The notes: generated by a model from the letters alone, not told the origin. 63,623 bases of DNA, filler included, from Stramenopiles sp. TOSAG23-6 (GCA_900128565.1; 9 parts of 9 records of this genome joined end to end with filler, not necessarily neighbours in it); one strand, 5' to 3'. Positions 1-62,256 are shown, counted from the first letter of the whole stretch. Program-made: numbers and translations.

Positions 1-55
1 TTTCGTACCTAACAAATTTAAGTTTTTTTTTTTGAAATATTTTTCCAAAATACAT
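1..55 (+). mobile_element. Introner-like intron, 3' part (ends ...AATACAT)
   Basis: CGTACCTAAC core, GAAATATTTT and AATACAT, followed by an in-frame PWWP exon at 56. Confidence 0.75.
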
Positions 56-427
56 CAACGTACTGGACGTTTGGTTTGGGTTAAAGTAGATGGTTTCCCG
101 GATTGGCCTGCGGAGATTTGCTTTGATATTTCAGAAAAGAAAGCGAATGCACATTTTGATTTATCGCTTGTTGTGTTTTTTGGCGATGAGGAATCTACAG
201 AGTTTCTTCATTCTCCAGAGGAAGATTTATCTCATTTTATTGGGAATGAAAATGATCCGTCTATATTACCTATTGGATGCCCTGAACGTGATGATGCGTA
301 TGAAACTGCTCTAAAGGCTGCATTGACAAGGAAGTTAGTTCTAGAAAATGAGCATGGCCCGAGGCATTCATTTCGTGCGAGAAAGAAACATGCAGTGACA
401 CCAGGTAATGCTCAAATAGTAGTATAA
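56..427 (+). CDS. PWWP-domain protein, last exon (5' truncated)
   Basis: LVWVKVDGFPDWPAEI...VVFFGD matches the PWWP pattern. Confidence 0.75.
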   Translation, partial: QRTGRLVWVKVDGFPDWPAEICFDISEKKANAHFDLSLVVFFGDEESTEFLHSPEEDLSHFIGNENDPSILPIGCPERDDAYETALKAALTRKLVLENEHGPRHSFRARKKHAVTPGNAQIVV

Positions 428-548
428 AAAAGTGACTTGACTGCAACTAAATTTTTGTGCTTTACAATTTAAAATTTTGATGTTTGTTTGCATATTCTCA
501 TAGTAAATGACACGGATTATATTTATCTTTATAGTTTATGTAGTACTT

Positions 549-1130
549 TTATCTTTGTACACCCATCATGTTTTTCTCTTCTAGAACTGACGCTGCAAAC
601 GTCGCTGGTGTCGCTGCTTTGAGGAAATTGTCTCCAGCGAAATGAGCAAATTTTGGGCAGTCAAGTGCCTTATCTGTACAAACAACATCCGCGCCAATCG
701 CATTTTTCAACGCCGTCATAAAATCTATCTCGCCGCTAAAATCTGCTTCGGGTCTAATATAACCGCACACAACTAGTCGTATTTCTTCACCATAAAAATC
801 TTCGGCAAATTCGTGCAATAAATAAGGTTCGACCACTTTATGTTGAGTTGCTTCAGTACCTTTAAAAGTTGGATTATGTCCGACACTTATAGCTGCTTTA
901 TATATACAAAGATCACTGTTAACATTTCCTACAGATGCCCAGCCACAATAAATTCCTGTATCCATTTTCTGAAGAGTAGAATACACCGCGGCTGAATTGT
1001 CTAGATTTGCAGTCGGCCAACCTAATTCTTTCGAACCCCGTTGGAAACCTTTTGCAACCGTTGAACAAAACCGAATCGGTGGGTCCACGAGACTGACTGT
1101 TCTATTTGCTACTGATTTGGTTGAAGCCAT
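549..1130 (-). CDS. RFK: Riboflavin kinase
   Basis: GFQRGSKELGWPTANL, SVGHNPTF, EPYLLHEF..DFYGE, GYIRPE motifs; ATG at 1130. Confidence 0.93.
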   Translation of the reverse strand: MASTKSVANRTVSLVDPPIRFCSTVAKGFQRGSKELGWPTANLDNSAAVYSTLQKMDTGIYCGWASVGNVNSDLCIYKAAISVGHNPTFKGTEATQHKVVEPYLLHEFAEDFYGEEIRLVVCGYIRPEADFSGEIDFMTALKNAIGADVVCTDKALDCPKFAHFAGDNFLKAATPATFAASVLEEKNMMGVQR

Positions 1131-1493
1131 GACGTAAACGATAAACAATATTATGTCTTGTTGACGCCTCAATGTAATGTATAATTTATAGGATAGAGTG
1201 GCAATTTGCAAAATTGTGTCGGTATTTGTATTTTATAGTATGTGTTTCAGGTTTCAGCGAAAAAGACGAAGACGAAGACGAAGCAAAGCAGTCAAAGACG
1301 TCAAACATTTTATTATTAATAGGGTTGGGTTAGGGTTTGCAATTTAAATTGGGCAAAATTAAAATTTCATAAAATTTTCAAATTTTTCGAAACCTCCGAC
1401 TCCGAGTTCACATCCTTTTGCCGAGGAGTAGTCTACTATATATACATTACGACTCACCTGTCAGAGCGCGTCTGAGTAAGAATACATTATACT

Positions 1494-2501
1494 ATGTCGG
1501 AAAGTGACGCACAAAATACTAATCTTGTAGATGAGGCAAAAGTTTCGAAGTCTGATAATTACACTGGTAATAGATCTTCACCCGTCGCAGAATCCGTAGT
1601 CGACAACGTTAAAAGTGAGGATTGTGAGGTATCTGTCGGAGACTCAACCAAAGAAGATATCGACAGAAAAAATGCAATGCTTTATCAACAGACTAGTTTA
1701 GAAATGTTTTTGCAGAAAAATCCTGATAGAGAATTGCTTCTTGAATGGAGAGACGACAAGTCAGGAATATGGAAATTAATATCGATCGTGACATATGCAT
1801 ACCTGCTTTTTTCACCTATCTTACCTTTACTTCCACAAATGGAAAGGAAATTTTTTATAGTACTCATTTGGATATTCATTACCATGCTTGTATGGTTTAA
1901 AATTGAGTACGATAATTACGCTGAAATTTGGTGGATTTGTTTCGCCAGAGGCATTATTGTCGAATTTCCCGATACTGATACATGGAAGGGTTATTTGGTG
2001 ACAAAACCTATAATCATAGCAGTGTTGACTATGTTCACCTTTGGAGTTGTGGCATTTCTAGGTCTTACATACAACAACGATGCGAATAGTTGGAAAGACT
2101 TCCATGTGTATGAGACCTCGTTTTTTCAAATTTTGTCAGCGTCGTTTGTGTTTGTTCTTACAAAAAATGTTGTCTGCTTGGAAGATTGTCAACACTTACT
2201 CTCAATCAACCGTGCACTGAAATATTTGAAAGATCCATATTTGCTAACAAATAAAGGCTTTAAAAGCGTACATATAACTCAAATACAGAAATATGTATTT
2301 GATATACAAAGTAGACATTTTGTACGAAACCTACCAAATTTTTTACATAGCCATTCAAATCAAGAAATGCAGATTAAAAAATTTAGCTGGAATCATATTC
2401 ATAGATTAAGTCACAAACCTGTACAAGCTAATACGTTGAAGATTGGAGGAGGAATGAGGCTACTAGTATTTTTCCGGACAAAAAAAAATCTTGATGAATA
2501 A
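1494..2501 (+). CDS. Multi-pass membrane protein of unknown function
   Basis: 335-aa intronless ORF with about four hydrophobic segments. Confidence 0.65.
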   Translation: MSESDAQNTNLVDEAKVSKSDNYTGNRSSPVAESVVDNVKSEDCEVSVGDSTKEDIDRKNAMLYQQTSLEMFLQKNPDRELLLEWRDDKSGIWKLISIVTYAYLLFSPILPLLPQMERKFFIVLIWIFITMLVWFKIEYDNYAEIWWICFARGIIVEFPDTDTWKGYLVTKPIIIAVLTMFTFGVVAFLGLTYNNDANSWKDFHVYETSFFQILSASFVFVLTKNVVCLEDCQHLLSINRALKYLKDPYLLTNKGFKSVHITQIQKYVFDIQSRHFVRNLPNFLHSHSNQEMQIKKFSWNHIHRLSHKPVQANTLKIGGGMRLLVFFRTKKNLDE

Positions 2502-2562
2502 AAAACTTGTAAAATACTTTTCCGGACAAAAAAAAATCTTGATGAATAAAAAACTTGTAAAA
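2469..2562. repeat. 48-bp-period tandem duplication spanning the stop codon of the 1494..2501 gene
   Basis: TTTCCGGACAAAAAAAAATCTTGATGAATAAAAAACTTGTAAAA occurs at 2471 and again at 2519. Confidence 0.85.
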
Positions 2563-2678: not shown

Positions 2679-3440
2679 TTATTTTGTTTGATACCCTCTA
2701 CCAGTGTGTGATCTAGGATTCTGAAATAATTCAGAAAGCTCTTCTAAGGAAACATTTTTTCTAAACATCTGAGTTTTACCTAATCTAGGATGGTCCAAGC
2801 AGGTTTTTACAGTCCCCGTCATGTATTTTGGAAAAATATTTCCCAAAAAAAAAACTAAAATTTGTAAGGTACAAAATTACGTATGAAAAAAACATTGAAA
2901 TTGAAAAAAAAATAAAACATACGTATAATAAATCTCGAACTTACAAAAACCATCGTTTGTGTCACCTTCAAAAGCAACAACTCGTGATTGAGGATTAAAT
3001 GCAACTTCATCGAGACCATATATAGCAGCATAGTGGCGAACGTCATCTAAATCCAAACCAGAAGATTGTAAGTCATTTATGATATGCCTCAAAAATCGTT
3101 CATACCTTTGAGCATTTTGTAAACCACAAACACCACGTGTGCCATTAGGAACCCTATAAGAACCAACAACGTTTTTCCATCCCTTGCATCTCAGAATTTT
3201 TACCTGGCATGGAAATCTCCCCCCCCAAGCAACATGTGACCAAGTAGCCGCTTCGCTATCAGCGATGAAAGGACCACAAAGTATCTTACTTTCAACGTTA
3301 TATAATAGCAATGGGAATCCCGGGGAAATGCGATTGGAACGACACGAATCTGAAAAACTCCCTTCTCTTGCTCCGAAAAGTCCTCTATTGTAACACTCCT
3401 CTTGTGTTTCATTATTACAGCAAAAAATATATGCTGCCAT
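2679..3440 (-). CDS. DCD-domain protein with a C-terminal YYTTGT..HPR..G.TQ.FR domain; exons 3440-2923 and 2820-2679
   Basis: YIFCCNNETQEEC..GLFG and FPCQV are DCD-like; splicing gives EIYYTTGTVKTCLDHPRLGKTQMFRKNV..NPRSHTGRGY. Confidence 0.7.
2821..2922 (-). mobile_element. Introner-like intron, GT-AT, 102 nt
   Basis: AC|GTATGT...TTTTGTACCTTAC...AATACAT|G; contains an in-frame stop; removal restores YYTTGT. Confidence 0.85.
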
Positions 3441-5324: not shown

Positions 5325-8323
5325 ATGGCAAATTGGAGGCAATTCTCCCCAGGGGGGTTCAAAGCCACGACTTCCCTTCCCGCGTCCTTTTTATCAGATG
5401 CTAAGCCAGTTCGTCGCAATATACCGAGAAAAATAAGTGGTCCACCAACTAGTCAAGGAAATTCACCCAAAATCAAACAAAAGAAACATCACTCACGGTT
5501 AAATATTGGCAGTGCTGATTCAGCTTTGAGAGAATCATGTCATGATTCATTACCACCCCGTAATACTGTTTCAAAGCCATACACTTCTTCCCCTAGGCCT
5601 AGAAGGAAAACACCAGTCATACCTCCTCGCAACGCACCCCCTTTGCAACTATATAGTTTTCTTACTCGCACAGAAAAACTCGCAACTGATGAAGTCGAGC
5701 CCCCAAAGACAGGTATAGATGCAGATTTTATATGGCCACCCCCAAAACATATTAATATAGTTCCTCCAAAACAAGAACCATTAATGGAGGCCCCACAAAA
5801 TCTCCTTGCCTCAATCTTAAAAAAAGAAACTTTTCGCGTTGTTCAACCTGAAAAACTCATCAATGAAGTTGTCTATGACTCAACTGATGTTTCTCCGTCA
5901 AACAGTCAAAAACGACATAAATTTAATAGTAGCTTTAATAGAACTCCGGGGAAGGCAAAACAAAATAGTGTTTCCCCATGGTATACCCCAAAAGGATCAG
6001 ATGATTCTGTGCTCGTCTTCGAGTCTCGCTTTGAAAGTGGAAATCTCCGACGTGCCATCCAAGTGTATGAAAATGAGTACGATCTTATATTAAAACCAGA
6101 TTTTAATACAAGAGGACATACACAATGGTATTATTTTTCTGTATCCAATACACGGCATGGAAGAGCATACAAATTTAATATCATTAATTTAGTTAAAAAT
6201 GATTCATTGTATGTTTTATTTTTTTTCAAATTAGATTTTTTTTTCGTACGAAATTTTGTACCTAACGATTTTTTTTGTGAAATATTTTTTCACAATACTT
6301 GTATAATTGGGGAATGAGGCCATGTATTTTTTTCATCATGATTTTTTTTGTTTTTTTTTATAGGAAATTATGTACCTAACAAAAAACATCAATTTTTTTG
6401 AAATATTTTCCAAAAATACATTGATGTACTCAGTAAAAGATTCTGAAAATTCTAGTTATTCAAGCCCAACACAAAGTGAGCAAAGGATAGGATGGAAGCG
6501 ATGTGGTCGAGATATTTGTTATTACCAAAATGGTATGTCCAGAAAATCTGGGTCTTTTTTTACGTGTACCTTTACGACAGAATTTCCACATTCTAATGAT
6601 ACGGTCTATGTATGTTTTATTTTTTTAATTTCGAATTTATTTTTTTCATACGAAAGTTTGTACCTAACGATTTTTTTTGAAATATTTTTTCAAAATACAT
6701 TTAGCATACTGTTATCCTTATACTTACACCGACCTCCGTAGATACTTACAAAAATTAGAGTCAGATCCCATGAGAAGCAAAACTTTTCTTCGGCGATCGT
6801 TGTGTACTACACTTGCAGGTAACACGTGTGATTTAATTACTATAACCACATTCGGTTCCGATGCAGAGTCAATGAAGTCTCGTAAAGGTGTTGTTGTAAC
6901 TGCGAGAGTCCATCCTGGTGAATCTAATGCTAGCTGGATGATGAAAGGATTTTTAGATTATCTCACAGGAAATTCGTTGGATGCTAGAATTTTACGGGAT
7001 AATTTTATATTTAAAATAATTCCAATGTTAAATCCTGATGGAGTTATTGTTGGTAATTATCGATGTTCACTCGCCGGTATTGATTTAAATCGTATTTATA
7101 TGGTTCCCTCTAGAAAGCTCCATCCTACAATATTTTATACAAAACAAATGATTAAACGATTTACTCAAGATCGAGAAGTAGTTCTCTCGGTGGATTTGCA
7201 TGGACACTCCAAGAAGATGAATGTTTTCATGTATGGTTGTCAAAATAACAACGATCCACATTTAAAGGACCGGGAGAAAATATTTCCAAGAATGTTATGG
7301 AAAAATTCTTCGATATTTTCATTTCGGGATTGTAATTTCAAAGTTCAGAAGGCAAAGGCCTCAACCGCACGAGTTGTTATTGCAAAAGAACTTGGACTAA
7401 TCAATAGTTACACGATGGAGGCAACATTTGCGGGCGCAAATTTTGGGCGTCTTAAAGGTTGTCATTTTTCTACAAGAGATTTAGAATCTATGGGTCATTG
7501 TTTCTGTGATACAATTCTAGATTATTGTGATCCCGACCAGACTAAGGTAAAACTGACCATGAAAGAACTTCGCATGATGTGTCGTACCTCATCTAGAGTG
7601 ACAGATGATGATAGTGATTGTGGGTCTGATTCGAATGATAATGTTGAATGGGTCAAGTCAGAAATAGGTCAAAAAATCAAAAAGAAATCAAAATCACACA
7701 AGAGAAAAATCCGCAAAAATGGTAAAGCTAAAAAAGTTCTGTCTGCAAGGAAGCATCACAAGGAATCTACGAATACTTCAGAAATTAAGCCAAGGATTGC
7801 TTCACCAAAATTATCGCGCCGTAGGCCGCGCAATCATGCACAAATGAAGAAACGAGCAATTCAATACAATAAAACTCAAGATAATACTTATGAAGATGCA
7901 GCTGTAGCTGCGGCGGCCGATCTGATGAAAAATAGTACAGGTATAGTGAATAATGTCTGGGAGGCATTTAAATCTGGTAGACGTCCTTTAAATAGAGGTA
8001 AGCGTCCTCCTGTATCATTAGCGTCAGATACAAGTAAAGATCAAACGGAATCCCGAAGTATCTTGAAGGTAAGCAAGTTAAAGCAACGTAGAAAGAATAG
8101 GAGAAAAGGTAAAAAAGGATTGTTCAAACAAGGTGGCAGTAGCCGGAGTGATAGATCGGACGATAGGAGTTGGGAAGATGAACAAAGCGCTGAGCTGTCC
8201 GGCAATGTCACGAAAAGTTTTATACAGATTGGGACAAATGGAAGATCTAAAAATTCTCCGAGCCCGATGGATATAGGTATGGGTGTTCTAGAAACCTCAG
8301 AATGTCTTCCATATATACTATGA
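5325..8323 (+). CDS. Cytosolic carboxypeptidase (M14D, CCP/Nna1/AGBL family); exons 5325-6208, 6301-6323, 6422-6609, 6701-8323
   Basis: FESRFESGNL, TQWYYF, spliced DSLYNWGMRPLMYS and DTVYLAYCYPYTY, ARVHPGE, MLNPDGV, GIDLNR, DLHGHS, SYTME. Confidence 0.93.
6209..6300 (+). mobile_element. Introner-like intron, GT-TT, 92 nt
   Basis: TT|GTATGT...CGTACGAAATTTTGTACCTAAC...AATACTT|G; TT on both sides. Confidence 0.8.
6324..6421 (+). mobile_element. Introner-like intron, GT-AT, 98 nt
   Basis: AT|GTATTT...TGTACCTAAC...AATACAT|TG; restores RPLMYS. Confidence 0.85.
6610..6700 (+). mobile_element. Introner-like intron, GT-AT, 91 nt
   Basis: AT|GTATGT...TGTACCTAAC...AATACAT|TTA; restores YLAYCYPYTY; the next AG (6704) is out of frame. 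Confidence 0.88.
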
Positions 8324-8615: not shown

Positions 8616-8647
8616 ACCCTAACCCTAACGAATGATTTTACATATTC

Positions 8648-9579
8648 TTAGACTTTAGACAATTCTGTATCAACTAATTCATTTGATTTTATATCATTTG
8701 TGCCTGGAGATTCTTTCGATACAGTTTTTATGACATTGTGAGTTCCTTCTTTTTCCTTGGGTAAAATTTCTTCTTGCTTTTCACAGGTTGAACCACTAGG
8801 GTTAGGGTTAGGATTAGATGCTAGAGTAGTATTGGTGTCACTTAAGGACAGGGCTCCGCTTGGTTTGGCTGATTTATTCAACGCACTTGAATTTGATGAT
8901 ATAGGATTCGTTGATGTGCTATCTTTACTAGAGGTTGAATCAGTGGTATTATTACTATTTGATCCAACACCGGGTGTAGATTCATCTCGAAAGGGTGGCC
9001 AATTAGAAGAGTTCCGGGCATGCATTGTGAGAAAATATTTCATTTTTTTTGTTAGGTACAAATTTTACTATGAAAAAATATATACGAAATTGAGAAAAAT
9101 GAAAACGTACATGTATCGGCACTAATCTCTCATTCAGGCTAGGTTCCAGTTTATATTCTGTTGGTGTAAAGTTAAACAGCGGCGGAAGTGGGGTGCCGTC
9201 GTGTAATGTGGTTCCGGGGACTCGTAATTCATCAAAAAATGGATGCAAGCATGTATTTTGAAAAATATTTCAAAAAAAAAGATTAAATTTGTTAGGTACA
9301 AAATTTTTTGAAAAAAAAAATTCGATTTTTTTGTAAAAAAAAAATAAAACATACATGCTCGAATGGGTGTCAAACGACTTTTGGGTTCATATTTCAATAA
9401 CTCATCAATAAACTGAATTGCTTCATCAGGAACTTTTTCGTACTTAAACACTTTAGACCAAGAACAAGATTCAATTTTAGGAAACTGAAAATCAGTGTAA
9501 TTTGGGTTCATTTCGCGAATTTGCTTCCTAGTTGGAGTACCTAACACTTTAATAATTTCAACCAATTGATCGACTCCAC
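8648..9579 (-). CDS. GSK3: Glycogen synthase kinase 3, 3' part; exons 9579-9355, 9250-9111, 9019-8648
   Basis: [33 protein letters not shown], spliced [22 protein letters not shown], spliced LVPIHAR. Confidence 0.92.
9020..9110 (-). mobile_element. Introner-like intron, GT-AT, 91 nt
   Basis: AT|GTACGT...TGTACCTAAC...AATGCAT|GCC; restores PIHAR. Confidence 0.85.
9251..9354 (-). mobile_element. Introner-like intron, GT-AT, 104 nt
   Basis: AT|GTATGT...TGTACCTAAC...AATACAT|GC; restores ACLHPFF. Confidence 0.88.
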
Positions 9580-9804
9580 ATGTATTGTAAAAAAGATTAC
9601 ATTCGAAATTTGTTAGGTACAAAATTTCGTACGAAAAAAAAAAATTGAAATTCATAATGAAACCGTTGTCGAGAAAAAAATATATAAGGAACGTGGACTT
9701 ACTCGACATGTACGTTTTTTGGTCAAATCATGAAATTTTTTTTAATTTTTTTTCGTACGAAATTTTGTACCTAACCAAAAAAAAAAAAAAAAAAAAAAAA
9801 AAAA

Positions 9805-39494: not shown

Positions 39495-39680
39495 NNNNNN
39501 NNNNNNNNNNNNNNNNNNNNNNNNNNNNNNNNNNNNNNTTAATTAATTAANNNNNNNNNNNNNNNNNNNNNNNNNNNNNNNNNNNNNNNNNNNNTTTCAA
39601 AAAAAAAAAACTAAAATTTGTTAGGTACAAAATTTCGTACGAAAAAAAATAAATTCGAAATTAAAAAAAATAAAACATAC

Positions 39681-44107: not shown

Positions 44108-45588
44108 ATGAAACGACTTTATCGAGTAGGTTCACAAGTTGAAGTATTCTATGATGGAAAATGGTTCACTGCAATTATTCAATCATATAAAAAGAAAGCA
44201 CCTTTAGTTCAATACGTAGTTGATGGTTCTAAAGAGCAACTATACCTCTCTGAAATTAATACCCGAATCAGACCTTTAGAAGTACAGAAAAATTCACGTA
44301 CAACCGCAATAAATGAAAAAAACAGACAAAGTGTGTCAAAAGCGAAACGTAAAAAGAGTAAAAGAAAGAATTCAGACGATAAAAGTGAAAATCATGCTCC
44401 CCCAAAGGACAACTCATCTGGTCTCTCTGAATACGAGTTACGACGATTAGCTCGCATTGAAGAAAATCGTAAAGTTTTGGTTAAGCTTGGTGTCGAATCT
44501 GCTCGCAATGCAATGGGTTTATCATCAAAGAAATCTGAAACGAAAACATCTCAACCGCGAAAAGTCTCTAAAAAAAGACAAAAACGTAAAATTGTGGGAC
44601 AGGAATCAACAGTGTCTATTCGTCGATCAAAGCGTCAACGTGGTATTAAAGCAGTCGGTATCAAGGATATCGATGAAAAGATTATCGCTCGTACTGATGC
44701 CAAAGATTGGGAAGAACAAGAAAAAGATCGAGTAAAGCAAAGTGAGATAGATGTACGTTTTCATCATTCAATTTCAAATTTATTTTTTTTCATACGAAAT
44801 TTTGTACGTAAAAACAATATTTTTTTAAAGTATCGACGTTTTCATCATTCAATTTCAAATTTATTCTTCTTGTGTATTAGATGGAAAAGCTTCAAAAACC
44901 AATTTCACATAAATCTCAAATGTAACATAATTTTTCACAATAAATCTTCTCAAACGCTGGAAAGCTGATAAACCTAAAAAGTTATCCGAAGCTGATTGTG
45001 CTATGTATATTTCCATCATTTATTTCTTACATTTATTTTTTCGTACGAAATTTTGTACCTAAAATGTTTTTTCACCCAACAGAAAAAAATATTTTTTCAC
45101 AATACATGAATATGTTTCTCATTCCTACAGGTGTCCCGGGTGTGAATGACCATACATTAAAATCCATTCAACCTGGTGTTAACTCGCATTTATGGGGCTT
45201 CTGTCAGGGGTTATATAGTAGAATATTTCTTCACATTCGCCCAGGGGATCTTTTGTTAATGACATCTAGTGGAACTGGAAAGTTTAACTTAGTTGCAAAA
45301 GTCAAGGATACAAAAGTCGTCACTCGTGAAGAAGCTGATCGCTATTGGTCAAGAATGAGCTTTTCAATGGGTGGTACATCAAAAAGAAATGTGGGATTTC
45401 CTTTACTTGTACTGCTAGAACCACCTGCTAAAATTGATTGGCCAAAAATGGAAGTCATGCGGCTCCTTGGGTACAATGATCATTTACAATCAAGTAGACG
45501 GATTCCACCCGATCGCAAAAACACCCCTGGCGCACAAGTCATTCTTCAACGTTGTTTGAGTGTTATAAAAAAGTCACCAAAGAAGTAA
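44108..45588 (+). CDS. Nuclear protein with a Tudor-like N-terminus and a possible EVE/PUA-like C-terminal domain; exons 44108-44752, 44946-45004, 45108-45588
   Basis: VGSQVEVFYDGKWFTAII..VQY..DGSKE; LSEYE.RRL.RIEENR..L..LG; WGF..IRPGDLLLM. Confidence 0.65.
44753..44945 (+). mobile_element. Introner-like intron, GT-AT, 193 nt, with an internal duplication of its 5' segment
   Basis: AT|GTACGT...CAATAAAT|CTT; using the AG at 44880 instead leads to a stop. Confidence 0.65.
45005..45107 (+). mobile_element. Introner-like intron, GT-AT, 103 nt
   Basis: AT|GTATAT...CGTACGAAATTTTGTACCTAA...AATACAT|G; the internal CAG at 45082 is out of frame. Confidence 0.75.
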
Positions 45589-45685: not shown

Positions 45686-47953
45686 TCAATTGAACAAATA
45701 GTTTCCACCGCATTCGTCATATACAGCTCTATTGAGCCATTGACCAGGCTCTATTGACTGTTGTATTTGACCATCTATATTACTTAACGTATTTGAAACT
45801 GCCAACAAGCTTCCAAACCATGGCAGAGTTGCACGATTCAAAACTTCATCAGAATTTGTAATATTATCTTTGTGACTCCTCCTATAACATTTTAAAATGG
45901 AACATTTAGTACCACTTGTCATTGACGTAGTTACTTTCCCCATCTCGCGCTGCACTCTTCTTTCAATCCCAGGAAATGACAAACCTCCACCACCAAGAGC
46001 GATATGCCTTAGAAATATATCAGCGGCTTTTACATTACCTTTCATTATACTGTTTGTAGATACTATTGCTGATCGAACGGATCTGTTTTGTGTAGATGTA
46101 TATAAATCATGCAATTAGTTCGAAATTTCTTTGAATTCAATCATACCAAAAAAAATGTATGTGTAAAAAATGTATTTAAATTACCTCTCCAATAATTCTG
46201 ATACACCCATTAATTCTCCTGAAAAGTATAAATCATCAGGAGGATCATATTTACTTTCTATTTCATTAGGGGGTGAGGCAGTGTAGTTTATGCTACTACT
46301 TCTACCATTATTCTTTATTGATATTAAATAGGAATGAGGATCAAATAGAGCTTCACATATTGTATACCTTTCTTGTTCTAAAGAAACATTAATTTTGGTT
46401 CCATCAGGTAATTTTAGACCTGTGCTACTTTCATAGTTTAAACCTAATTTGTTCATTTCGTTTGGGGAAGGTTGCCACTTACTGCAAACAGGTCGCACAT
46501 AACAACCTTTTTCTTTTAGAGATTCAGCCGATGTGAAATCAAAAGACATATTTGAAATTTTCTCTCTTTGATCAATGGAAGTCATGTTTTGATGTTTATC
46601 AATAACTTTCCATTGCAATAATAAAGTAAGATCTCGACCTCCCCATGGTGAGCACAATCGAGACTGCTGTTGCCTCTGTTTCATTACATCTATAGAAATT
46701 CCATGACCAAATTGTAAAGGTTCTCTGAGTTTAATATTGCCATCTGCAGTAACGACATCTTGGGGCCACAATTGCGTACCGTCAAATATGTATTTTGGAA
46801 AAATATTTCAAAAAAAAAACTTAAAATTTGTTAGGTACAAAATTTACTATAAAAACAAATTCGAATTTGAAAAAAAAAAAACATGCATTGCTGTGGAATA
46901 TGTCATTGAATGCCCACATTCTACAGCGATTCCCGTAACACAACCATGGGCTCTTAGTATTGAAACAGAACTATTTTCAAACCTAATCATTGGTGTATTT
47001 AATTCTTCAAATGCAACTGTGGAGTACGCTTTACAAACCCTATTCCAATCAGTCACTCCTCTTTTTGCTAGAGTATTGAATGGGTTTATTGTAAAGCATA
47101 GAGGAGGACATCGACTACCTGGTGGTGCTCCTACAAAAATACTGTCAATCGAAGATTTTAAAGTTTTGGAAATATTATCAACACAATCNTGTTGAAAATA
47201 TATATCTTTGAGTGGTTTAGTATAAGTTTCCATTTCTAAATATTTTTCATTACTTGTTAGACTTAATGGTTCATCATCACACGAAAATCCTATTTTTGTT
47301 GTGTTTGAGCCAATATCCAAAACCAAACTATTGCCATCACGTCTATGATCAAATCTATATTGCTGTACCCAGGTGGGTAGATACTTTTGATGTGTTTTCG
47401 CCTTTTCATTTCTAACGTTCCAAATAGAAGTTTCTTCTATTTCAATATTGCTATCTTTACAATCTTTATATACTGAATTTATTTTACTTGTCATCTCTTC
47501 AAATCCTTCCCCCACGGTTATTATCCAAAGTGCTGCGTCATTTAAATCACACTCAACGTCCAATGCTCGAATTGCAAGCTTTTCAGAAAATCCCATCTGT
47601 ACAAGAAGTTTTACATTTTCCAAGTTTTGCTTATTATCTTCTCTCATATACTTTGAATGTTTCACTCTGGCTACAGAACTGTTGTCTTTGACTTCAGGAA
47701 TCATCCAAGGCATGCAATTTGAATCTTTCCAGCGACGTTCATACAACTTTTTCCATACTGGGTCCGAGAGGGATGCTGAAGATTCACGCTTCCCCAATGA
47801 TATACACGAGTATACAGACTTCATGGGTAAATACTCGAAAATTTGCATTATTACAAATATGGGTAGTCCTCCTTGCGGATGCCTCTGAATTATTCTAGTC
47901 GGTGCTTCCTCAGAGAAGGGAAGGATAGTATAGTTAGAGACAACGGCACCCAT
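45686..47953 (-). CDS. F-box + UBA + actin-related protein; exons 47953-46887, 46787-46185, 46082-45686
   Basis: LPIFVIMQIFEYL..D.VWK.LY..RW (F-box); LVQMGF..A.RAL (UBA); LVLDIGSNTTKIGF, FEELNTP, TGIAVECG, GGRDLT, LPDG, ERY..EALF.P, GGG..FPGIERRVQRE (actin fold). Confidence 0.85.
46083..46184 (-). other. Ordinary canonical GT-AG intron (not in the repeat family)
   Basis: AG|GTAATT...ACTAAT...AACAG|A; in frame. Confidence 0.75.
46788..46886 (-). mobile_element. Introner-like intron, GC-AT, 99 nt
   Basis: AT|GCATGT...TGTACCTAAC...AATACAT|A; restores actin-like STAIFDG; contains an in-frame stop. Confidence 0.82.
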
Positions 47954-48323: not shown

Positions 48324-49299
48324 CTATCTAACTGACCGATACGACAATGATACCTCTCGCAATTGATTCAGTTTTCGTTCTACTTCTGCGTTGAGTGCCT
48401 CCAATTCATCCCGAATATCAGCGTCATCTTCAAGCTCTTTCGGGATTCCAAGACTTGGTTGTGGAATACTTAAACATGGTATTTCATTTATATCATTATT
48501 CATTACATGTTTGTCTTGATAATCCCGTGCTTCAATCTTAGGTGAAGATAAAACTTGATTTGTTGCATCATATTTCTTGGGGTATATTTTTTCTACAACA
48601 TCATTTTCTATCTTTGATATCTGTAGTATACAGAATATGTCGAAGTTCGAAAATCGTTAGTTATTTGTAACGAAAATGCGTTTGATAAAAAAAAATGAAA
48701 TAAATAATAAAAATGTATGTAAAAATTAGGGTTAGGGTTATGAAGACATACATATAAAGAGTCAATAGGAAATTCATGATGCTCTTTTGAAAAGTTTTTT
48801 GGTGAAATTTCAGTATTATTGAGTTGCATTTTTGAAGGACTCTCATTGTCGTCATTACAAAAACTTGAAATTGGGCCGATATTTTCATCAGATGGTCCTG
48901 GAGAAAATTCTTGTTTTTCGTGTTTTTTATCAGAAATGGTCCATGACATTCCACCGGAATTATATCCAATTTGTTGCGATTCAAAACTTTGATGTCTTCT
49001 ATTTGATAAAGTATCGAGTTTATTCACTGATTTTCTTACAGATTTCAATGTATTGTGAAAAAATATATATATATATGTATTTTGTACAGAAAATTCGTTA
49101 GATATGGCTTTTTTTTTTCTTTTTTTTTTTTTGAAAAATTAAATTTAAAAATTAAATTTAAAAATTTAAAAATTCTTACAACTCATGATGAGAAAACGTA
49201 CATAAATCTCTACTTTTACTTTTCGTATTTTTCTCATACTCCAAATTGGTATTCAACATTGGAGCGTCTCCTCGTACTAATTTTTCTACTTTACGGACA
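48324..49299 (-). CDS. Hypothetical protein, 3' part; exons 49299-49202, 49047-48752, 48620-48324
   Basis: Continuous frame after removing introns 49048-49201 (GT-AT) and 48621-48751 (GT-AG). Confidence 0.6.
49048..49201 (-). mobile_element. Introner-like intron, GT-AT, 154 nt
   Basis: AT|GTACGT...ATCTAAC...CAATACAT|TG; in frame. Confidence 0.65.
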
Positions 49300-49457: not shown

Positions 49458-50775
49458 CTCTTGTGTGGAATCACCGCTCGGTAAATCCATATTTCTGTCT
49501 AGAATAAATGATGGAATTTGTGACTGCTGTGATGGAAGTGATGAAAAATCTACCATTGGGTGCATAAATGTGTGTAGTATCGAGCAATCTGAGTTGAATG
49601 CGAAGTATTCGGGACGTCTTTCTGGATGTCAAGCAAAGCTCAAACTATTAGAATTAACTCACTCCAAGCAAGTTTTCTATGAAAAGACACAGAGAGAGAC
49701 AATAGAAAAGCAATCGGAATTCAATAAACAGCTGAAATTGTTAAATTTGGAATTAAATAATCATAGAGCAATGCTGCAAGAGAGGAAACAACTACATGAA
49801 GAATTTCAGCTTAAAGGATCAGCTTATTTAGGTTTAGTACGTTGCTTGAAAAATAGTTCTCCAGATGAAACTTCCCACTGTTCTTTTTCTAATATAGAAA
49901 TATTGAATGTTATTAATCATATGGTTGACACAAATCCGACTGAAGTCAAACGTGTATCCGAAACTTTACTAAACTCGAATTCGATGAGGAGAATTTCAAC
50001 TGATAATAAAAATAAAGAAGATTGCTCTTGTAGTAGTATTGATTATGACACCTCATTTAATCTACAATTAATTTGGAGACAATTGTCCCAAAAACAAGAA
50101 ATTCCGTCAATTGAATACATAGAAAATCAAAAAAGAGAAATTGAGGATTCAAAAAATAAATTACAACGGATTCAACGGATGTCAGAGAAAGAGTATCTTT
50201 TAGATTTTGGTCCTGATCGTATTTGGTGGCCGTTACTCGGTAAATGCGTTGAAAAAAAAGAATATAGCGTATGTTTGATGAAATACGCAAAACAAGGTAA
50301 TGAAAGTTTAGGTAGATTTTCTGGCTGGGTCGATCCAACTGAGTCAATACCCAATGTTTGTTTTATTTTTTTTCAATTTAGAATTTATTTTTCGTACGAA
50401 AATTTGTACCTAACGATTTTTTTTTGAAATATTTTTCCGAAATACATGTAAGACAGGGATTTGCAAATACTTCTGTGACCAAGGATAGTCTCATTTATCA
50501 TCGCGGTCAGTTTTGGCGAAATAAAGGAGAAATTGTAGAACGTGTGTAAGTTTTATTTTTTTTCAAATTCGAGTTTTTTTTTTCGTACGAAATTTTGTAC
50601 CTAACGATTTGTTTTTTGAAATATTTTTCCAAAATACATGTACACACCAAATTTTCCATCAACAATGGTCATTGATGATATTCATCAAAATACATGCACA
50701 CGTTGCCGGAATCCAAAAGTAAGTGAAATAGTTATAAATGCGATAAGAGAACACGAAGAAAACCTTAAAAGATAA
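49458..50775 (+). CDS. Glucosidase II beta subunit (PRKCSH)-like protein, 5' truncated; exons up to 50355, 50448-50545, 50640-50775
   Basis: SRINDGICDCCDGSDE; DFGPD..W.PL.GKC...EYSVC....KQ....LGRF.GW. Confidence 0.75.
50356..50447 (+). mobile_element. Introner-like intron, GT-AT, 92 nt
   Basis: AT|GTTTGT...CGTACGAAAATTTGTACCTAAC...AATACAT|GTA. Confidence 0.78.
50546..50639 (+). mobile_element. Introner-like intron, GT-AT, 94 nt
   Basis: GT|GTAAGT...CGTACGAAATTTTGTACCTAAC...AATACAT|G. Confidence 0.75.
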
Positions 50776-51565: not shown

Positions 51566-54500
51566 ATGAATGATGTCGCTGTTTCGATGTGGCGTCTCTT
51601 CGATGAATGCCAAAAATCTTTTATACCACACTCAAAAGCACGCCACGTAATGCACAAGCTACTTTCTCGTCATCCTGTTGTTTTCACCAAAACGTTTCTC
51701 GTATTTGTAGATAAACTTTTGACTTGCTGGAAACGTGAGCCTGCTGTTGAAAGATTAGTATCATTCACAGTTGGATTTTTTAAAGGTCAAACACTTGTAC
51801 AAGATGATAAGTGTCAAGTAGAAAGCAAAGAAGGTGCAGAGGAAGCCTCTGCTGCCAAAGGTGAAACGACAACATTTACCAAAGCTGAGCAGGACTTTGC
51901 GGATAACTTACTTAAACATTTATTATTACGCGGTGATGCGTCAGGAAAAGCTCCACGTTTCCGCTCATGTATGATTATTGCTGGTTTGATGGAAAATTTC
52001 CCAGAAGAGTATGATATTGACGAAGAACTTTGGGACTCGCTGCAATCCGGAATGACCTCTCGCACAATGGACAAGATCACAGCTGTTCGAGTACATGCTG
52101 TCCACGCCCTAAAACGTCTTGCTGACCCTGAAGATCCAGAATGTCCAACTACGACTGTGTTTATTGATCTCTTAAGTCATGATAGCAGCAGTGCCGTACG
52201 TAAGGCAGTGCTGGCAGACATTGGAATTAGTCGAATAACACTGCCTCACATTTTAGCGCGAACACGCGACGTTAAATTTGATGTCCGAGCTCAAGCAATA
52301 CATATGATAGCGTCTAAAATATCTGTTGCTCTTCTTTCTATTGATCAGCGATTAAATTTGCTATATCAAGGACTTTATGATGCATCAGCTACTGTAAAGT
52401 CTGAAACCCTAGAGCTTTTATCTGGTGCTTGGCTGGATCAAGCTGGAGGAAGTATTATAAAATTACTAGAATTACTCGATATTGAAGAGTGTGAACAAAT
52501 GGCAGAACTAATTCTGTATCGCATATTTGTACAAGCTAGTGCAGCTGCTCCATCTCTAACTAACACGTCCAGCCAAAAAAATGAAAAAGCAAAAAAGACA
52601 ATCGCAATGCAAACAAAACTTCGAAAAGCTATAGCTTCTGTTCCAACTTTACAATATCAAAGTGATTTAATAGCTAGAGCCAAAGCGCGTGCATTGCGCC
52701 GCAAGAATCGAGTTCGTCTTCGTGCATTACAGATGAAAACGTCTGCTAATCTGGATAGTTATGCAATGTACGTTTTTAAAATTGAATGTAAAATATTTTT
52801 TTATACGAAAATTTGTACCTAACAAAAAAAATCAAAAAATATATATATATTTTCACAATACATGAGTGATACTGAAGAAAACGAATCTGATTCTGAAGAA
52901 GAAGAGGAAGAAGAATCTCTTGGAACTCATAGAATAAGTGAAGAAAGTTCTTTTTTCTGGCGTGTTCGATTTCAGTTTCTGTGGGCTCGAGGGGCAACTG
53001 GTCGCGAATCTGTCGATACGTCTCTTCCTGGAGGTGTCGAATTTTGTGGTCTTGTAAAACTTGAGCACCATCAGCATCCAGATGAACGATCCAATTTTGC
53101 ACTCAAACAACTCGCACGTATTGCTCGATATCTCGATTTAAAAGATGAAATTGGTCGACGTCACATTGTTGAACTTTTGCGTGGCTCGGCTGGTTTGTTG
53201 AGAGATTTGACAACTCAAGACGATATTGTTCCATTGCTACTTGATGCTGTTGTACCAGCGTATGAGACTGAGGCAGATTATGTGCGTTTTTTTTGTGAAA
53301 TAATATCTGATATTCTCGATCCCTTGACTGAAGAAGGTAAAGGTTTAAAATGTGATTTGTCAGAGCAAATTTCTGGACTTGAAGCTCAACTTTCAGGTTT
53401 GGCTTTGAGAGATGAAAATAAAGGTCGTTTATCTGCTGCTACTGAAGAAGAAGAAAAAGGTATTCGAGCAGCTGTTGATCGTCTACAAGCTCAACTAACT
53501 TCACTTAACCTTGCAGAAAATAAAGTAGAAAACGAGGATGACAATCAAATAGACGAAGAAAACATTGACGAATTTGATCCAGTTGAACGTAGATGGATCC
53601 GTTGTCTAGAAATTGCATCATACCTTCTCTCTAATACTAAACGAGGATTAAGTACTCCGGAACTTCGAGCGATGGATGAGACTTTGTTGATGCCTGCAGC
53701 TCTTAATCCAAACCCAATGGTGCGAGAAGCTGCTGCAAAAACAATTGGATTATTTTGTGCTCTTGATAAAGAAGTCGCCCGTCGTCATGCAATGCTTTTA
53801 TTCAAATTTGTTTCTTTAGATTATGGTCTTGTTCGAGTGGCAGCAACAAAGGCATTCTTCGACTTATTCATGATACATTCCGATTTTCTGTCAAATAATG
53901 ATGATAACAGTGATCATCATGATGAAAATGTAGAAGCTAACCCACCTACCGCAAAAGAAGTTTGTATTTTATTATTGAAATTTTTAACAAATCCTAGTGT
54001 CTCTGATGATGAAGAATTCGTAGCGACCTCGGAGTTAATGAGTGTTTGTGGTGAAGGTTTTTCTAAATTAATCTTAATGGGAAAACTGCCGATGTTTTGT
54101 GCCGATAGACCAATGGATAATGAAGTGACTGTGATTGCAGAACTGATTAAAGTTTGCTTCACTCAAAAATGTATCAATGATGATGACAACGATGTTCATG
54201 ATGAAGATGAACGAGTTATTCACAGAAAACGATTACTGCAATGCCTTGCTGTTTTTTTTCCTACTTTAGCTACATCATCAGAAACAGGTGCTCTGGCAAT
54301 TCGCCAAGCTATTTCGCCAAGTTTGTTTGCTATTGCATATATGTCTAATCTACCGGCGAAGACATCAACTGGAATTGTAACGGCAAGTGCCCAATACTTT
54401 GTACATTTACTTGATATGGTTGAAACTAATCGAAATTTCGCTGGAGCTATTTTAGTTGCAGAAGAACTCGCAATACATATTCTCTCAGTTCCACGTGAAT

Positions 54501-59318: not shown

Positions 59319-60687
59319 TGTTTATTATTTTGATGTTCAGAAATATGTGCAGATACAACATATGCTGCATACAATTGAACAATTTGTTTCACTCTATTTT
59401 GACAAAAGTATAATACATTTCGAATTTCTATTGGTAATAAAGCATCTCGTTGTTGTGCATCATTTGAATTGAGACTTTGATTACCTATAACAAAGTTTGG
59501 TGCAATCATTCGAGAATGTTGTTCAATATTTTTTACTTTTTTTGAGTGAAACAATTTGAATAAATTTTGTATACTTTGACTCATTTTTGTACATTTTCGA
59601 GTATTTTGCTGAATATTAATCCTTTGTGTAGATATTTTACGTTCAATTTGATCAACATTTGATTGAAGATCTTTCACAAGGATAGAAGATTTTACCTTTT
59701 TTTGTTTATGTTGCTTTTCATTTTCATTCATATTTGTTTCTAAAGATAAAATGGCCTTTTGAATTTGTATGTTATCCAAATCTAATTTTTGTAATACTTC
59801 AAATTTAAGCATTTTATTTTGTTCAATTTCTAAAATACTTTGAACCAATTCATCAACAGTTTCAATACCAGTCGATTTGCTGATGTTTATCCACATATTT
59901 TTATGATGTTCAATCTTATTATCCATTATTGAAGTATCTGTATCTGTATCATATTTTGTAAAAAAATATTTTTTTTTTTTTTTTTGGTTAGGTTAGATTA
60001 GGTTAGGTATGAAATTTCGTAATAAAAAAAAAATAAAGAAAAATAAATGTTAAAAATGTTGAAAATGTACATTTGGTGCACATTGACTTTTTGTTGATTT
60101 GAGAGTTTTCACTGAACTTTTTTTTCCTTTCTTATTTTGTTTTGCTAATTTTCTTTTTATATCATTTTTCTCTTTTTCAATTTTTGCCTCATCTAAAATT
60201 TTCTGATCACGTCGGAGAGAATTTAACTCCATTTCTAATACTTTTTTTTGTGTAACAAAATGTTTCTGAATACTTTCAATTTTTCTCTCCGCAATGTCAC
60301 GTGCATTATACATTGAATGAAGAGAATATTTTGCATTTTCTAGAGATTTATTTGCAGCAATGACTTGTTTTTTTGAATCTTCAAAAGCATTATAATACAA
60401 CATTTTTTCTGTTCTGAGGTAATTGATTTGTTTTTTATACTCCTGAATTTTACTGATCATCATTGACAAAGTTTTTTTCTCATTTACTGTTCGACGTTCA
60501 CTGACATCTAATAAACGCTGTACATGTATTATGAAAAAATATTTTTTTTGTAATTTTTTTGTTAGGTACAAAATTTCGTACGAAAAAAAAATTTAGATAA
60601 AAAATTGAAAAAAAATAAAACGTATATGACGTCGTTCTCTTTCCTCTGCCCATGTACCAAGAGCATACCCTTTTTGTTGTACTGCAA
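59319..60687 (-). CDS. Coiled-coil protein resembling the outer dynein arm docking complex (CCDC63/CCDC114 family), partial; exons 60687-60626, 60523-60071, 59950-59319
   Basis: ISKSTGIETVDELVQSILEIEQN..F..L; INYLRTEK..Y...F. Confidence 0.6.
59951..60070 (-). mobile_element. Introner-like intron, GT-AT, 120 nt, with a reiterated branch motif
   Basis: AT|GTACAT...CATACCTAACCTAATCTAACCTAAC...AAAATAT|GAT. Confidence 0.7.
60524..60625 (-). mobile_element. Introner-like intron, AT-AT, 102 nt
   Basis: AT|ATACGT...CGTACGAAATTTTGTACCTAAC...AATACAT|GTA; joins ERRH to VQRL. Confidence 0.7.
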
Positions 60688-60923
60688 NNNNNNNNNNNNN
60701 NNNNNNNNNNNNNNNNNNNNNNNNNNNNNNNTTAATTAATTAANNNNNNNNNNNNNNNNNNNNNNNNNNNNNNNNNNNNNNNNNNNNTACAAAATTTCGT
60801 ATGAAAAAAAAAATATTTTTGAAAAAATATTTCAAAAAAAAATTCTAAAAAATTTGTTAGGTACAAAATTTTCAAAAAAAAAATAAATTCGATTTTTTTT
60901 GTAAAAAAATAACTAAAACTTAC

Positions 60924-61334
60924 ATAATCTCTATTAAATGATTCAACCGTCGGATAAGTTTCATTTTGTTGTTGATGTTGTATATTTTTGTTATGATGTT
61001 TATTACTTTTATTTGTAGTTGTTTTACATTGTAAAATTCCAGTCGCTGATTTTGGAACAAAACTGTTCTCTGTGTTTGACTGTGCATTTTGTTTTTTTTG
61101 TTTTTGTATTGTTTTTTTTAAACTATCTTCAGAATTTTTATATTTTTTGACAGTAGTTGATGATGATCTATGACCACCGATGGTACTGACAGATACAATT
61201 TCGGAGGTTTGAATGAGACTATCACGAGACACATTTGTAGTATTTTTAGTTTTAGGGTTTTTAGGGTTTTTAGCACCCATTACACGTATTCCTTGTGTAA
61301 TAAGTAATATGGTTAGTAAAGCATTTTTCATCAT
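60924..61334 (-). CDS. Predicted secreted protein, first exon (followed by a family intron starting at 60923)
   Basis: Signal-like MKNALLTILLITQG; AT|GTAAGT donor. Confidence 0.55.
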
Positions 61335-61444
61335 GTTGTTTAGTAAAGTCGTTTTAGTACTTGGAGAAACTTTACGCGCAACAACTCAAAAAGAATTTCT
61401 TTATTTTTCAATTGTTCTTTTATTATCACAGATATTGAATACGT

Positions 61445-62040
61445 ATGGATATATTTCAAGATGCAAAGTTCATGGCTTCATTACCCACAGGTCCACGTAT
61501 TCGAGATGATGACGAAGAGGACACATACACTGTAAGCCGGGAACGATCGAGCCGCTATGAACGTTTTGATAGACATAAACAGCGTTCTTCATCCTCAGGT
61601 AGTTATGACGCACGCGCTGCTAGAGGCCCAGATTCACGACAATATACGCGAGATAACATGTATCGTGGAACAAATGGTACATATGGACGTCATGAATCAC
61701 CACAAAGACTTGGCCCAGCCCCAACACGAGAGCAGCAAAGTATTGATGATGTACTTTTTGACGCCTTAGAAAACCCACGCGAGCGTATGAATGTATTACA
61801 GTTCGAAGACGCTATTGTCTCTTTTATGAATGATCGTATTGATCAAAGACTTGATTTTCTTGGTTTGACTTCATTTCATAGACTTTTAGTTCATCGCCTG
61901 GCGTTGCGATTTAGATTACAACGCGAAACCTTTGACAGAGTTGATTGTATTGGTGGTGATGAAAAATTTAGATCGTTTCAACTAGATCGAAGTCGCAATT
62001 ATTATGATAGTTTATGTTTATGTCTTTATAAGGATATGTA
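61445..62040 (+). CDS. R3H-domain protein (R3HDM/encore-like), 3' truncated at a family intron
   Basis: ALENPRER..VL.FE..I..F; LTSFHRLLVHRLALRFRL. Confidence 0.85.
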
Positions 62041-62256
62041 TAGTATGTTTTCATTATGAATTTCTAATTTATTTTTTTTTGAAAATTTTGTACCTAACAA
62101 TTTTTTTTTTTTTGAGTTTTTATTTCGATACGTTTTTCATTATGAATTTCAAATTTNNNNNNNNNNNNNNNNNNNNNNNNNNNNNNNNNNNNNNNNNNNN
62201 TTAATTAATTAANNNNNNNNNNNNNNNNNNNNNNNNNNNNNNNNNNNNNNNNNNNN

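Follow-up and report, generated by a model that had tools for sequence, protein, structure and literature searches.

An introner-like element family with GT..AT ends in coding sequences of Stramenopiles sp. TOSAG23-6, and its predicted removal after a duplicated AT

A family of short repeated elements, beginning in nearly every complete copy with GT and ending in AT, interrupts coding sequences of Stramenopiles sp. TOSAG23-6 (GCA_900128565.1) in the manner of introners, mobile elements that act as ready-made introns. The family was characterised in a stretch of 63,623 nt (the window), composed of nine contig pieces separated by spacers of the form N44-TTAATTAATTAA-N44. The copies are found in the sense orientation only, carry a dinucleotide direct repeat at their ends, and in one case are matched by an empty site in independently sampled DNA. 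Conserved proteins are restored, at the level of predicted translation, by removal of exactly GT..AT and by no other cut, so that the coding sequences appear to require this removal, which presumably takes place in RNA.

The explanation cautiously favoured here, with a little better than even confidence, is that of an introner family that brings its own 5′ splice site and branch point and is excised by the spliceosome in the GT..AT register, the 3′ cut falling directly after a duplicated AT. A high-copy, non-autonomous mobile element would supply the 5′ splice site GTAYGT at its first base, together with a branch box, (GT)ACCTAAC, and a conserved 3′ block, ATATTTTT-YCAMAATAC. Insertion into coding DNA, preferentially at AT, would leave that dinucleotide on both sides (AT/GTAYGT...AATAC-AT/G, slashes marking the predicted cuts), and removal of the element with one copy of the dinucleotide would return the original mRNA exactly. 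The major spliceosome would be the agent, with U1 and U6 pairing to GTAYGT and U2 to CCTAAC, and exons would be ligated after AT rather than AG, AGs lying only 3–7 nt further on being passed over. By the logic in which one splice site is carried by the element and the other is recruited from the duplicated target, the 3′ cut would come to lie in an AT-type target rather than an AG-containing one.

Architecture, orientation and coding restoration

The 20-base core of the element, TACGAAATTTTGTACCTAAC, has 29 matches in the window at up to 3 mismatches, against 0.01 expected, and none of 100 shuffles reaches 29; copies occupy seven of the nine contig pieces (none on pieces 4 and 9) at a density of about one per 2 kb. 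An introner-like family had been proposed in a first-pass annotation of this DNA, and the proposal is borne out. Nineteen copies with both ends, of 91–127 nt and situated in about 12 genes of different families, form the curated set, with copies M, U, V, G and those at contig ends kept outside it as truncated or ambiguous. The first two bases are GT in 17 of the 19, GC in copy O and AT in copy T; the last two are AT in 17, TT in copy B and AG in copy K. The earlier count of 24 complete copies (20 ending in AT, one in TT and three in AG) therefore holds in its predominance of AT and not in its figures, because M, U, V, G and the contig-end copies have been left out and because the end counts also depend on copy L, which can be read to an AG at 43414 or an AT at 43420.

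Alignment of the copies reveals three conserved blocks with variable A/T-rich spacers between them: the 5′ end, (AT)GTAYGTTTT, in which position 4 is T, C or A; a central box, TTTTTC(A/G)TACGAAATTTTGTACCTAAC; and a 3′ block, (G)AAATATTTTT-YCAMAATACAT. The putative branch box (GT)ACCTAAC lies 32–65 nt upstream of the element end. Identity to the majority consensus ranges from 64 to 90%, the oldest-looking copies being S (64%), L (68%), N (68%), E (74%), R (75%) and C (77%). The copies at 64–78% identity (these six and H) retain GT, branch box and AT, and diverged copies keep the 5′ end, the CGTACGAAATTTTGTACCTAAC box and the ATATTTTT..AATACAT block while still residing in open frames. When the alignment is extended by 6-nt flanks, column identity is 0.3–0.5 in the outer flanks and 0.8–0.9 from the ATGTA start to the CAT end; similarity ends at the exon–intron boundaries, as in introners. 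Searches outside the window returned chance-level matches: a 17-mer of the element gave 64 loci in metagenome contigs, none of the 64 with the flanking consensus, and a 20-mer gave no match in viral contigs and a single one, approximately the chance expectation, in genome contigs (a Bacteroidales metagenome-assembled genome). Introns of the U12 type have a 5′ box RTATCCTT and a TCCTTRAC branch within about 10–26 nt of the 3′ end; membership of that class was ruled out on the 5′ consensus GTAYGTTTT and the distance of the branch box.

Orientation supplies the main indirect argument for removal at the RNA level. After removal of GT..AT, the joined frame is open in the sense direction for 19/19 curated copies, and openness in sense exceeds that in antisense for 18 of them, with one tie, in agreement with the earlier statement that complete copies lie in the sense of their host genes. 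A mechanical flank test applied to all 29 core matches, seven of which lie at contig ends, found sense above antisense in 19 of the 22 that could be tested; the three exceptions are a 3′ untranslated fragment (4576), a copy in the AT-rich piece 2 (13127) and copy Q, near the end of its gene. The bias is telling because DNA insertion has no reason to respect the transcript strand, and it suggests that copies are tolerated only where an orientation-dependent process acting on RNA removes them.

Exactness of removal was assessed most closely in the cytosolic carboxypeptidase (CCP) gene, whose four exons were joined by coordinates and aligned with 17 full-length homologues. With copies B, C and D removed exactly, no indel appears at any of the three junctions against 17/17 homologues, and the motifs RPLMYS and YLAYCYPYTY exactly span the junctions, as had been claimed from inspection. 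The GSK3 junction restored by removal of copy F, also claimed earlier, is continuous in the numbering of chain 7sxg_A: exon 1 ends at residue 295, exon 2, taken from its second residue, starts at 298, and the residues in between correspond to the split codon and residue 1. For copies other than B, C, D and F the assessment consists of frame continuity. At copy O, in a gene with a divergent actin fold, homology did not confirm the junction claimed earlier: searches of the Protein Data Bank (PDB) with both exons found nothing, and the end of exon 1 has a weak Pfam match (E 0.088, profile positions 115–157). For the restored WD40 motif of the first-pass annotation, Pfam gave no support.

Conventional splicing to cryptic AG sites, with slightly altered proteins as the outcome, was weighed at the same junctions and is regarded as very improbable. 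Copy K does end in AG, and an AG in frame is available 3 nt downstream of R, 6 nt downstream of L and T, and 36 nt downstream of A. Yet 11 of 18 copies hold no AG between branch box and 3′ end, and splicing to the nearest AG downstream would shift the frame in 11 of the 18 copies other than K (at a distance of 4 nt for D and 5 nt for P). Its use would remove 6 residues at B, 4 at C and 10 at F that are conserved in 17/17 carboxypeptidase homologues or in GSK3 chains. The AGs at 6704 and 45082, said earlier to shift the frame, and that at 6433, said to delete conserved residues, lie where they had been placed and have those effects.

Existing annotation offers one case in which the next AG has been taken. 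The 46-residue GSK3 exon, compared with a collection of 5.8 billion proteins, has a single near-identical counterpart, P0121 (100% identity over 78%), an automatic coding-sequence (CDS) model corresponding to 8990–9727 on the minus strand of the window; its source label, GSMAST32..., presumably hints at a MAST-3-type marine stramenopile. At F the model keeps the GT and uses the next AG, whereby the ten conserved residues are lost and the residue of the junction codon is changed, and it translates straight through introns G and E. P0121 shows that these introns have gone unrecognised in existing annotation, and is no evidence on splicing.

Flanking dinucleotide, cutting register and an empty site

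The two bases preceding the element are AT in 15 of the 19 curated copies, AC in two, TT in one and GT in one, where the background frequency of AT is 9.4%. Since AT stands before 15 copies, the element ends constitute a 2-nt direct repeat; the repeats overlap both boundaries over 2–6 nt, the base after the intron is G in 12/19 copies, and the typical context is nAT/GTAYGT...AATACAT/G. The first-pass annotation had missed both the AT before 15 of 19 copies and the terminal dinucleotide, which looks like a duplicated target. In copy B, an odd end (..ACTT) is matched by the TT that precedes it, a locus-specific correspondence (one case, p about 0.05). A match across all copies cannot by itself separate duplication from a preferred insertion site (PMC9860276; this and the other papers are cited for the portions of their text available), and a 2-nt target duplication is likely, not established.

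Where AT flanks both sides, as in those 15 copies, removal of GT..AT, TG..CA or AT..AC yields the same mRNA. The same introner could be cut two bases to the left, as ATGTAYGT...AATAC, in a register with AT-AC ends, an arrangement considered improbable. AT precedes 15/19 copies and AC stands immediately before the terminal AT in 16/19, copy T is regular as AT..AC where the other register makes it AT..AT, and AT-AC is the classical alternative terminal pair, U2-dependent cases included (PMC1557818). Against this, AT..AC leaves six of 19 copies aberrant (A, L, Q, B, E and S) where GT..AT leaves two, with the GC of O a tolerated variant and K canonical; moreover, the 5′ consensus becomes ATGTAT, which matches no known 5′ splice site well, whereas GTAYGT varies at its second position only as the GC of O. 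The GT-AT register is favoured because of these fewer aberrant ends and the perfect GTAYGT consensus. Copy T hints at a G1-to-A mutant rescued by both cuts sliding two bases to the left, its product unchanged thanks to the repeat.

An independent seawater DNA run (X3, a metagenome) covers all 30 bins of contig piece 1 at about 6–9x with few differences, and contains an exact empty site. Its contig record 13 is collinear with 4733–6206 and then continues unbroken from 6299 to 6612, lacking the 92 nt of copy B and keeping one TT, and holds copy C in full at the depth of its flanks; the empty site implies that the elements are recent insertions. Copy B is the one insertion polymorphism observed (1/1) among the contig matches listed. 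Records 11 and 14 of the same run extend into copies A and D, and record 14 comprises the last 27 nt of D and the next 375 nt with 0 differences, an identity by which the final T of D is not an error of sequencing or assembly in the source; the possibility of a systematic T-for-G error, raised at first pass, is excluded at D. Summed contig depth is about 1,000–23,000 in bins containing the element and 3–18 in bins free of it, a quantity that is not a copy number and that fits the density of about one copy per 2 kb.

The empty site also bears on elimination at the level of DNA, in which each element would be cut precisely out of somatic DNA at its direct repeat, in the manner of ciliate internal eliminated sequences. 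Such a process might involve short AT-rich elements lying within coding sequence with a dinucleotide repeat at either end, and could leave the exact empty site of B in DNA. The X3 contig without B nevertheless keeps C at flank depth, bulk metagenome DNA includes copies A, C and D, sense-only orientation would be unexpected, the repeat is AT and not TA, and long open reading frames (ORFs) are maintained under the standard code; DNA-level elimination is scarcely credible, and identification with the ciliate sequences themselves (TA-bounded and orientation-free) was rejected on the repeat, the orientation and the bulk DNA.

Removal without the usual splice-site chemistry was considered in the form proposed for Amoebophrya elements and for the nonconventional introns of euglenids, in which GUAU..AUAC and the U4/A4 ends would pair. 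The GTAT at the element start mirrors the ATAC before the terminal AT, followed by T4/A4, direct repeats of 2–6 nt span both boundaries, and a direct plus inverted repeat architecture is described for Amoebophrya introns supported by RNA sequencing (PMC7789003). Folding, however, gave 6/6 copies no better than dinucleotide shuffles (z −1.59 to +0.38), and the complementarity of the terminal 16 nt averages 2.95 against 2.66 for random internal 16-mers, a level reached by 44% of controls. The near-perfect GTAYGT and CTAAC box preserved in old copies are as expected for spliceosomal recognition, and end pairing is held to be an improbable route. A hairpin model and a long terminal inverted repeat find no support, folds and complementarity being at control level. 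The element is not clearly a miniature inverted-repeat transposable element.

RNA evidence, precedents and the standing of the explanation

RNA was represented by assembled (Logan) contigs of three runs, two of them polyA-selected (X6 and X10) and one not (X8), compared with positions 1–9770. Among the contig matches listed for these three runs, none contains an exon–exon join across any element. Two X8 contigs pass unspliced from an exon into an element, record 26 (2867–3041) into 56 nt of intron A and record 31 (8799–9052) into 33 nt of intron E; each represents either RNA that is unspliced or carry-over of DNA. The ratio of summed depth between element bins and unique bins, a poor measure, is roughly equal in the RNA runs and the DNA run. 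Exons 6422–6609 and 9111–9250 have no RNA cover among the matches listed and are uninformative on splicing.

The missing joins, the two unspliced contigs and the RNA depth all weigh against spliceosomal removal after a duplicated AT, as do several features of the elements themselves. Exon ligation normally needs a G at the last intron position, contacting the G at +1. Copies A and L are preceded by AC and copy Q by GT, in each case unlike the copy's own end, and the target-duplication component depends on a single covarying copy, B. Two of 19 copies (T, AT..AT, and B, GT..TT) are aberrant even in the GT..AT register; the in-frame AGs of A, L, R and T offer acceptors of the ordinary kind; and 16-nt terminal inverted repeats are no better than control.

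Another account would be that the elements are poorly removed or never removed, being recent insertions that disable or burden genes and are tolerated in a diploid or relaxed genome. Exact restoration of the coding frame would then be a mere consequence of their late arrival in intact genes. The polymorphism of copy B, the occurrence of three insertions in one gene, and the two unspliced RNA-library contigs at A and E with no spliced contig among the matches listed would all be compatible with it. Neutral or harmful insertions would not be expected to lie in sense only, and copies as diverged as 64–78% identity would not be expected to keep GT, branch box and AT with open and conserved exons downstream. 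A density of about one per 2 kb extends to essential genes such as those for GSK3 and condensin, and the independent X3 DNA contains A, C and D as well; persistence without efficient removal is judged unlikely. Removal by the spliceosome in the GT..AT register remains the explanation that is leaned towards.

Beside these matches, the X6 RNA contig of record 21 (depth 11.2; site 6701–6860) begins at 6705, right after the AG located 4 nt past the AT end of D. At that site the X3 DNA contig reaches 27 nt into D, and contig starts are no evidence of a splice site.

Protein searches for products of the interrupted genes gave little from the same species. The best match to carboxypeptidase exon 4 has 68% identity, with none from the same species among the results; exon 3 returned no candidate same-species transcript protein; and the exon of the AP2-domain gene, compared with 1.84 billion representatives, has best matches of 38–44%, confined to the AP2 domain.

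Introners are described as widespread and derived from many transposon types (PMC12130899), and in the precedents one splice site is borne by the element and the other comes from the duplicated target (PMC11282704, PMC9860276). Those of Micromonas pusilla, Aureococcus and Chrysochromulina comprise hundreds to thousands of near-identical short, non-autonomous introns at unrelated positions (PMC11282704, PMC9860276), and the present family is alike in these respects, here with the 5′ site and a putative branch point as the carried parts. Exact restoration of the mRNA and presence/absence polymorphism between isolates have been reported for published introners; their counterparts here are the coding frame and copy B, read from sequence alone. 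The published elements splice at GY-AG, whereas the present copies have GT or GC at the 5′ end in 18/19 and, at the 3′ end, AT in 17/19 and AG in 1/19, their splicing being a prediction; the flanking repeat of published introners is 3–9 bp, as against 2 nt here, and the inverted termini here are not significant.

Three further systems provide partial parallels for the 3′ AT. In the tunicate Fritillaria, whose non-canonical introns derive from miniature inverted-repeat transposable elements, most introns belong to the AG/AC and AG/AT classes, with 3′ AT in 34% of introns in F. borealis and 44% in F. pellucida; a U2-type spliceosome uses the AT acceptors, U2AF is duplicated, and YAY both precedes the 5′ site and closes the intron (PMC13326754). 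The likeness includes the 3′ AT, YAY (here upstream in 11/19 copies and as the last three bases in 17/19) and a transposon origin (PMC13326754, PMC11282704). The 5′ ends of those animal introns, by contrast, are mostly AG and diverse, where a single homogeneous family in a protist has GT in 17/19 and a strict, yeast-like GTAYGT with a CTAAC box. Non-canonical introns make up more than 60% of the total in Amoebophrya, and a subset has direct repeats of 3–5 nt and inverted repeats of 8–20 nt (PMC7789003). Strains A25 and A120 share with the present case a marine protist host, repeated introns, direct repeats at the boundaries that leave the cut ambiguous, and the absence of a transposase inside (PMC7789003); they differ in having hairpins formed by the 8–20 nt inverted repeats and no preferred termini, against uniform GT..AT and no significant hairpin here. 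Rare GT-AT introns of animals, namely the U2-type intron of DGCR2 and seven U12-type cases, are splicing-competent and indicate that this terminal pair is chemically possible for both spliceosomes (PMC1557818); those are single conserved oddities, and here the pair belongs to a mobile family.

The first-pass view of the AT acceptor was accordingly overstated, with 3′ AT on a genomic scale in print for Fritillaria (PMC13326754) and non-canonical introners with direct repeats for Amoebophrya (PMC7789003). The larger interpretation, that most introns of the organism are spliced at an AT acceptor by a modified spliceosome, stands as regards the introner family, the need for exact GT..AT removal and the inability of AGs to substitute at conserved junctions. 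The RNA cut is a prediction, no junction occurring among the matches listed for the three RNA runs, and "most introns in this organism" and "modified spliceosome" extrapolate from one 63-kb window. New here are the AT direct repeat at the element ends, the empty site for B, the lack of significance of terminal inverted repeats and RNA hairpins, and the mis-modelled closest CDS. The literature consulted contained no GT-AT intron family and no description of unusual introns in MAST-type stramenopiles, although supplements could hold intron tables; in the available texts, the word "intron" is absent from PMC8163842 and PMC12614181 and occurs twice in PMC5778133, where "splic" does not occur.

The idea that exon ligation after AU is routine in a marine heterotrophic stramenopile, at thousands of introns with GUAYGU and CUAAC and in disregard of AGs 3–7 nt downstream, is regarded as an evenly balanced proposition. 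If true, a genome-wide class of GT-AT introns would have been created by one mobile element, recognition of the 3′ site or the second step would be changed (in U2AF1, Slu7/Prp18 or Prp8), and the gene sets of such single-cell genomes would be systematically broken by unrecognised introns. Should RNA confirm it, the family would amount to a natural experiment on 3′ splice-site choice, in which the 5′ site and branch are conventional and the last base differs. It would represent the third independent lineage, after fritillariid tunicates and Amoebophrya, to pair a burst of transposon-derived introns with non-AG splicing, and the most uniform of the three, making the tolerance of the spliceosome for new termini directly testable. 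Missed introns may distort the number of genes, the "pseudogene" calls and the functions assigned in such genomes of uncultured protists. A MAST-3 single-cell assembly has been reported with few genes and with dynein genes in a state of "advanced pseudogenization" (PMC5778133, in the text available), calls that deserve re-inspection if such assemblies carry the element.

Copies and other features of the window

Table 1. Positions of element copies and of telomere-type units in the window
Feature	Position	Strand	Length (nt)	Ends	Remarks
5′-truncated copy, 3′ part	1..55	+		..AATACAT	Cut by window start; before PWWP-domain ORF
Copy A	2821..2922	-	102	GT..AT	AC before; DCD-domain gene
Copy B	6209..6300	+	92	GT..TT	TT before; carboxypeptidase gene; empty site in X3 DNA contig
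Micro-exon between B and C	6301..6323	+	23
Copy C	6324..6421	+	98	GTATTT..AT	Present in X3 contig without B
Copy D	6610..6700	+	91	GT..AT	AG 4 nt downstream (6703-6704) would shift frame
Copy E	9020..9110	-	91	GT..GCAT	GSK3 gene, phase 0
Copy F	9251..9354	-	104	GT..AT	GSK3 gene, phase 1
Copy G	9580..9685	-		..ATACAT	Before GSK3 exon; 5′ end uncertain (contig-end chimera)
Copy H	16794..16908	+	115	GTACAT..AT	Low-complexity ORF
Copy I	18356..18475	+	120	GT..AT	AG at 18459 also in frame
5′ part of copy	29553..29604	+			Cut by contig end; AT before; IP3/ryanodine-receptor-like gene
5′ part of copy	39610..39680	-			Cut by contig start; AT before
Copy J	40264..40365	-	102	GT..AT	AP2-domain gene
Copy K	40546..40653	-	108	GT..AG	Sole curated copy with canonical end
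Copy L	43311..43420	+		GT..AT or GT..AG	AT at 43420 (family-homologous) or AG at 43414; both in frame
Copy M	44753..44833	+	81	GT..GTAT	Boundaries uncertain
Copy N	45005..45107	+	103	GTATAT..AT
Copy O	46788..46886	-	99	GC..AT	Divergent actin-fold gene
Copy W	49048..49201	-		GTACGT..ATACAT	Diverged; candidate AT ends 49075 and 49048
Copy P	50356..50447	+	92	GTTTGT..AT	Glucosidase II beta-like gene
Copy Q	50546..50639	+	94	GTAAGT..AT	GT before
Copy R	52768..52863	+	96	GT..AT	AG 3 nt downstream in frame; condensin Cnd3/NCAPG gene
Copy S	59951..60070	-	120	GTACAT..ATAT	64% identical to consensus
Copy T	60524..60625	-	102	ATACGT..AT	AT before; shifted by 2 = AT..AC
Copy U	60811..60923	-		GTAAGT..	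3′ end disturbed at contig end
Copy with GTATGT 5′ end	62043..62133	+		GTATGT..	Cut or disturbed at contig end
TTAGGGTTAGGGTT site	8615-8628	-
TTAGGGTTAGGGTT site	8796-8815	+
TTAGGGTTAGGGTT site	11939-11952	-
TTAGGGTTAGGGTT site	13050-13063	-
TTAGGGTTAGGGTT site	17132-17145	-
TTAGGGTTAGGGTT site	18682-18695	-
TTAGGGTTAGGGTT site	33795-33808	+
TTAGGGTTAGGGTT site	48726-48739	+

Some loci carry disturbed or partial copies. At the end of piece 1 (9686–9804), two copies stand head to head around a 24-nt exon-like piece, an arrangement suggestive of an inverted chimera produced by single-cell amplification or by assembly; for this reason the 5′ end of intron G is untrustworthy. Copy M is followed, within 44753–44900 on the plus strand, by a second, incomplete version of its 5′ part in tandem, with one frame open throughout, and the region may form one long intron, two introns or an exonised fragment. 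An isolated core-box fragment with one mismatch and without either end (4563–4605, plus strand) lies in the 3′ region of the RAD23-like gene and is covered by an RNA-library contig (X6 record 20).

The window (23–42% GC) is gene-dense eukaryotic DNA with long ORFs under the standard code. Pfam matches identify a PWWP protein, a riboflavin kinase, a DCD-domain protein, a RAD23-like protein, an M14 cytosolic carboxypeptidase, a p300-type acetyltransferase, TFIIF-beta, a DnaJ protein, a condensin Cnd3 subunit, a glucosidase-II-beta-like protein, kinases, ankyrin proteins, an IP3/ryanodine-receptor fragment and a divergent actin-fold protein. The GSK3 gene was assigned by comparison with PDB chains, and the relatives of the AP2-domain protein match it through that domain alone. 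Scans of the window for Rfam families and tRNAs found none. Between 19760 and 27787 on the plus strand, at a GC content of 0.40–0.42, overlapping ORFs are chained across different frames, one of them an ORF of 1,482 residues without a Pfam match, and no introner copy occurs until 29553. Introns outside the family were sought in the overlapping-ORF regions of piece 3, where no intron-like AT-rich spacer was found; the chain could stem from frameshifts introduced by errors of assembly, from the decay of a giant gene or from DNA of foreign origin.

The telomere-type double unit TTAGGGTTAGGGTT has nine matches at up to one mismatch against 0.01 expected. Several stand just beyond gene ends, for example about 20 nt past the GSK3 stop codon, and the units may act as terminators or promoter boxes, or be remnants of a mobile element. 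Two hairpins, each single-locus within the window, were identified between genes. That at 8519–8615, between the convergent carboxypeptidase and GSK3 genes, has 42-nt arms that are 90% complementary around a 13-nt loop, and carries at the inner arm ends TTTTCGTACGTAA and TTTTGTACCTAA, the same two motifs as the introner core; that at 50985–51036 has perfect arms of 14 nt (CTTAGGTACGGAAT). Both hairpins may be kin to an ancestor of the introner, or may share with it a protein-binding motif.

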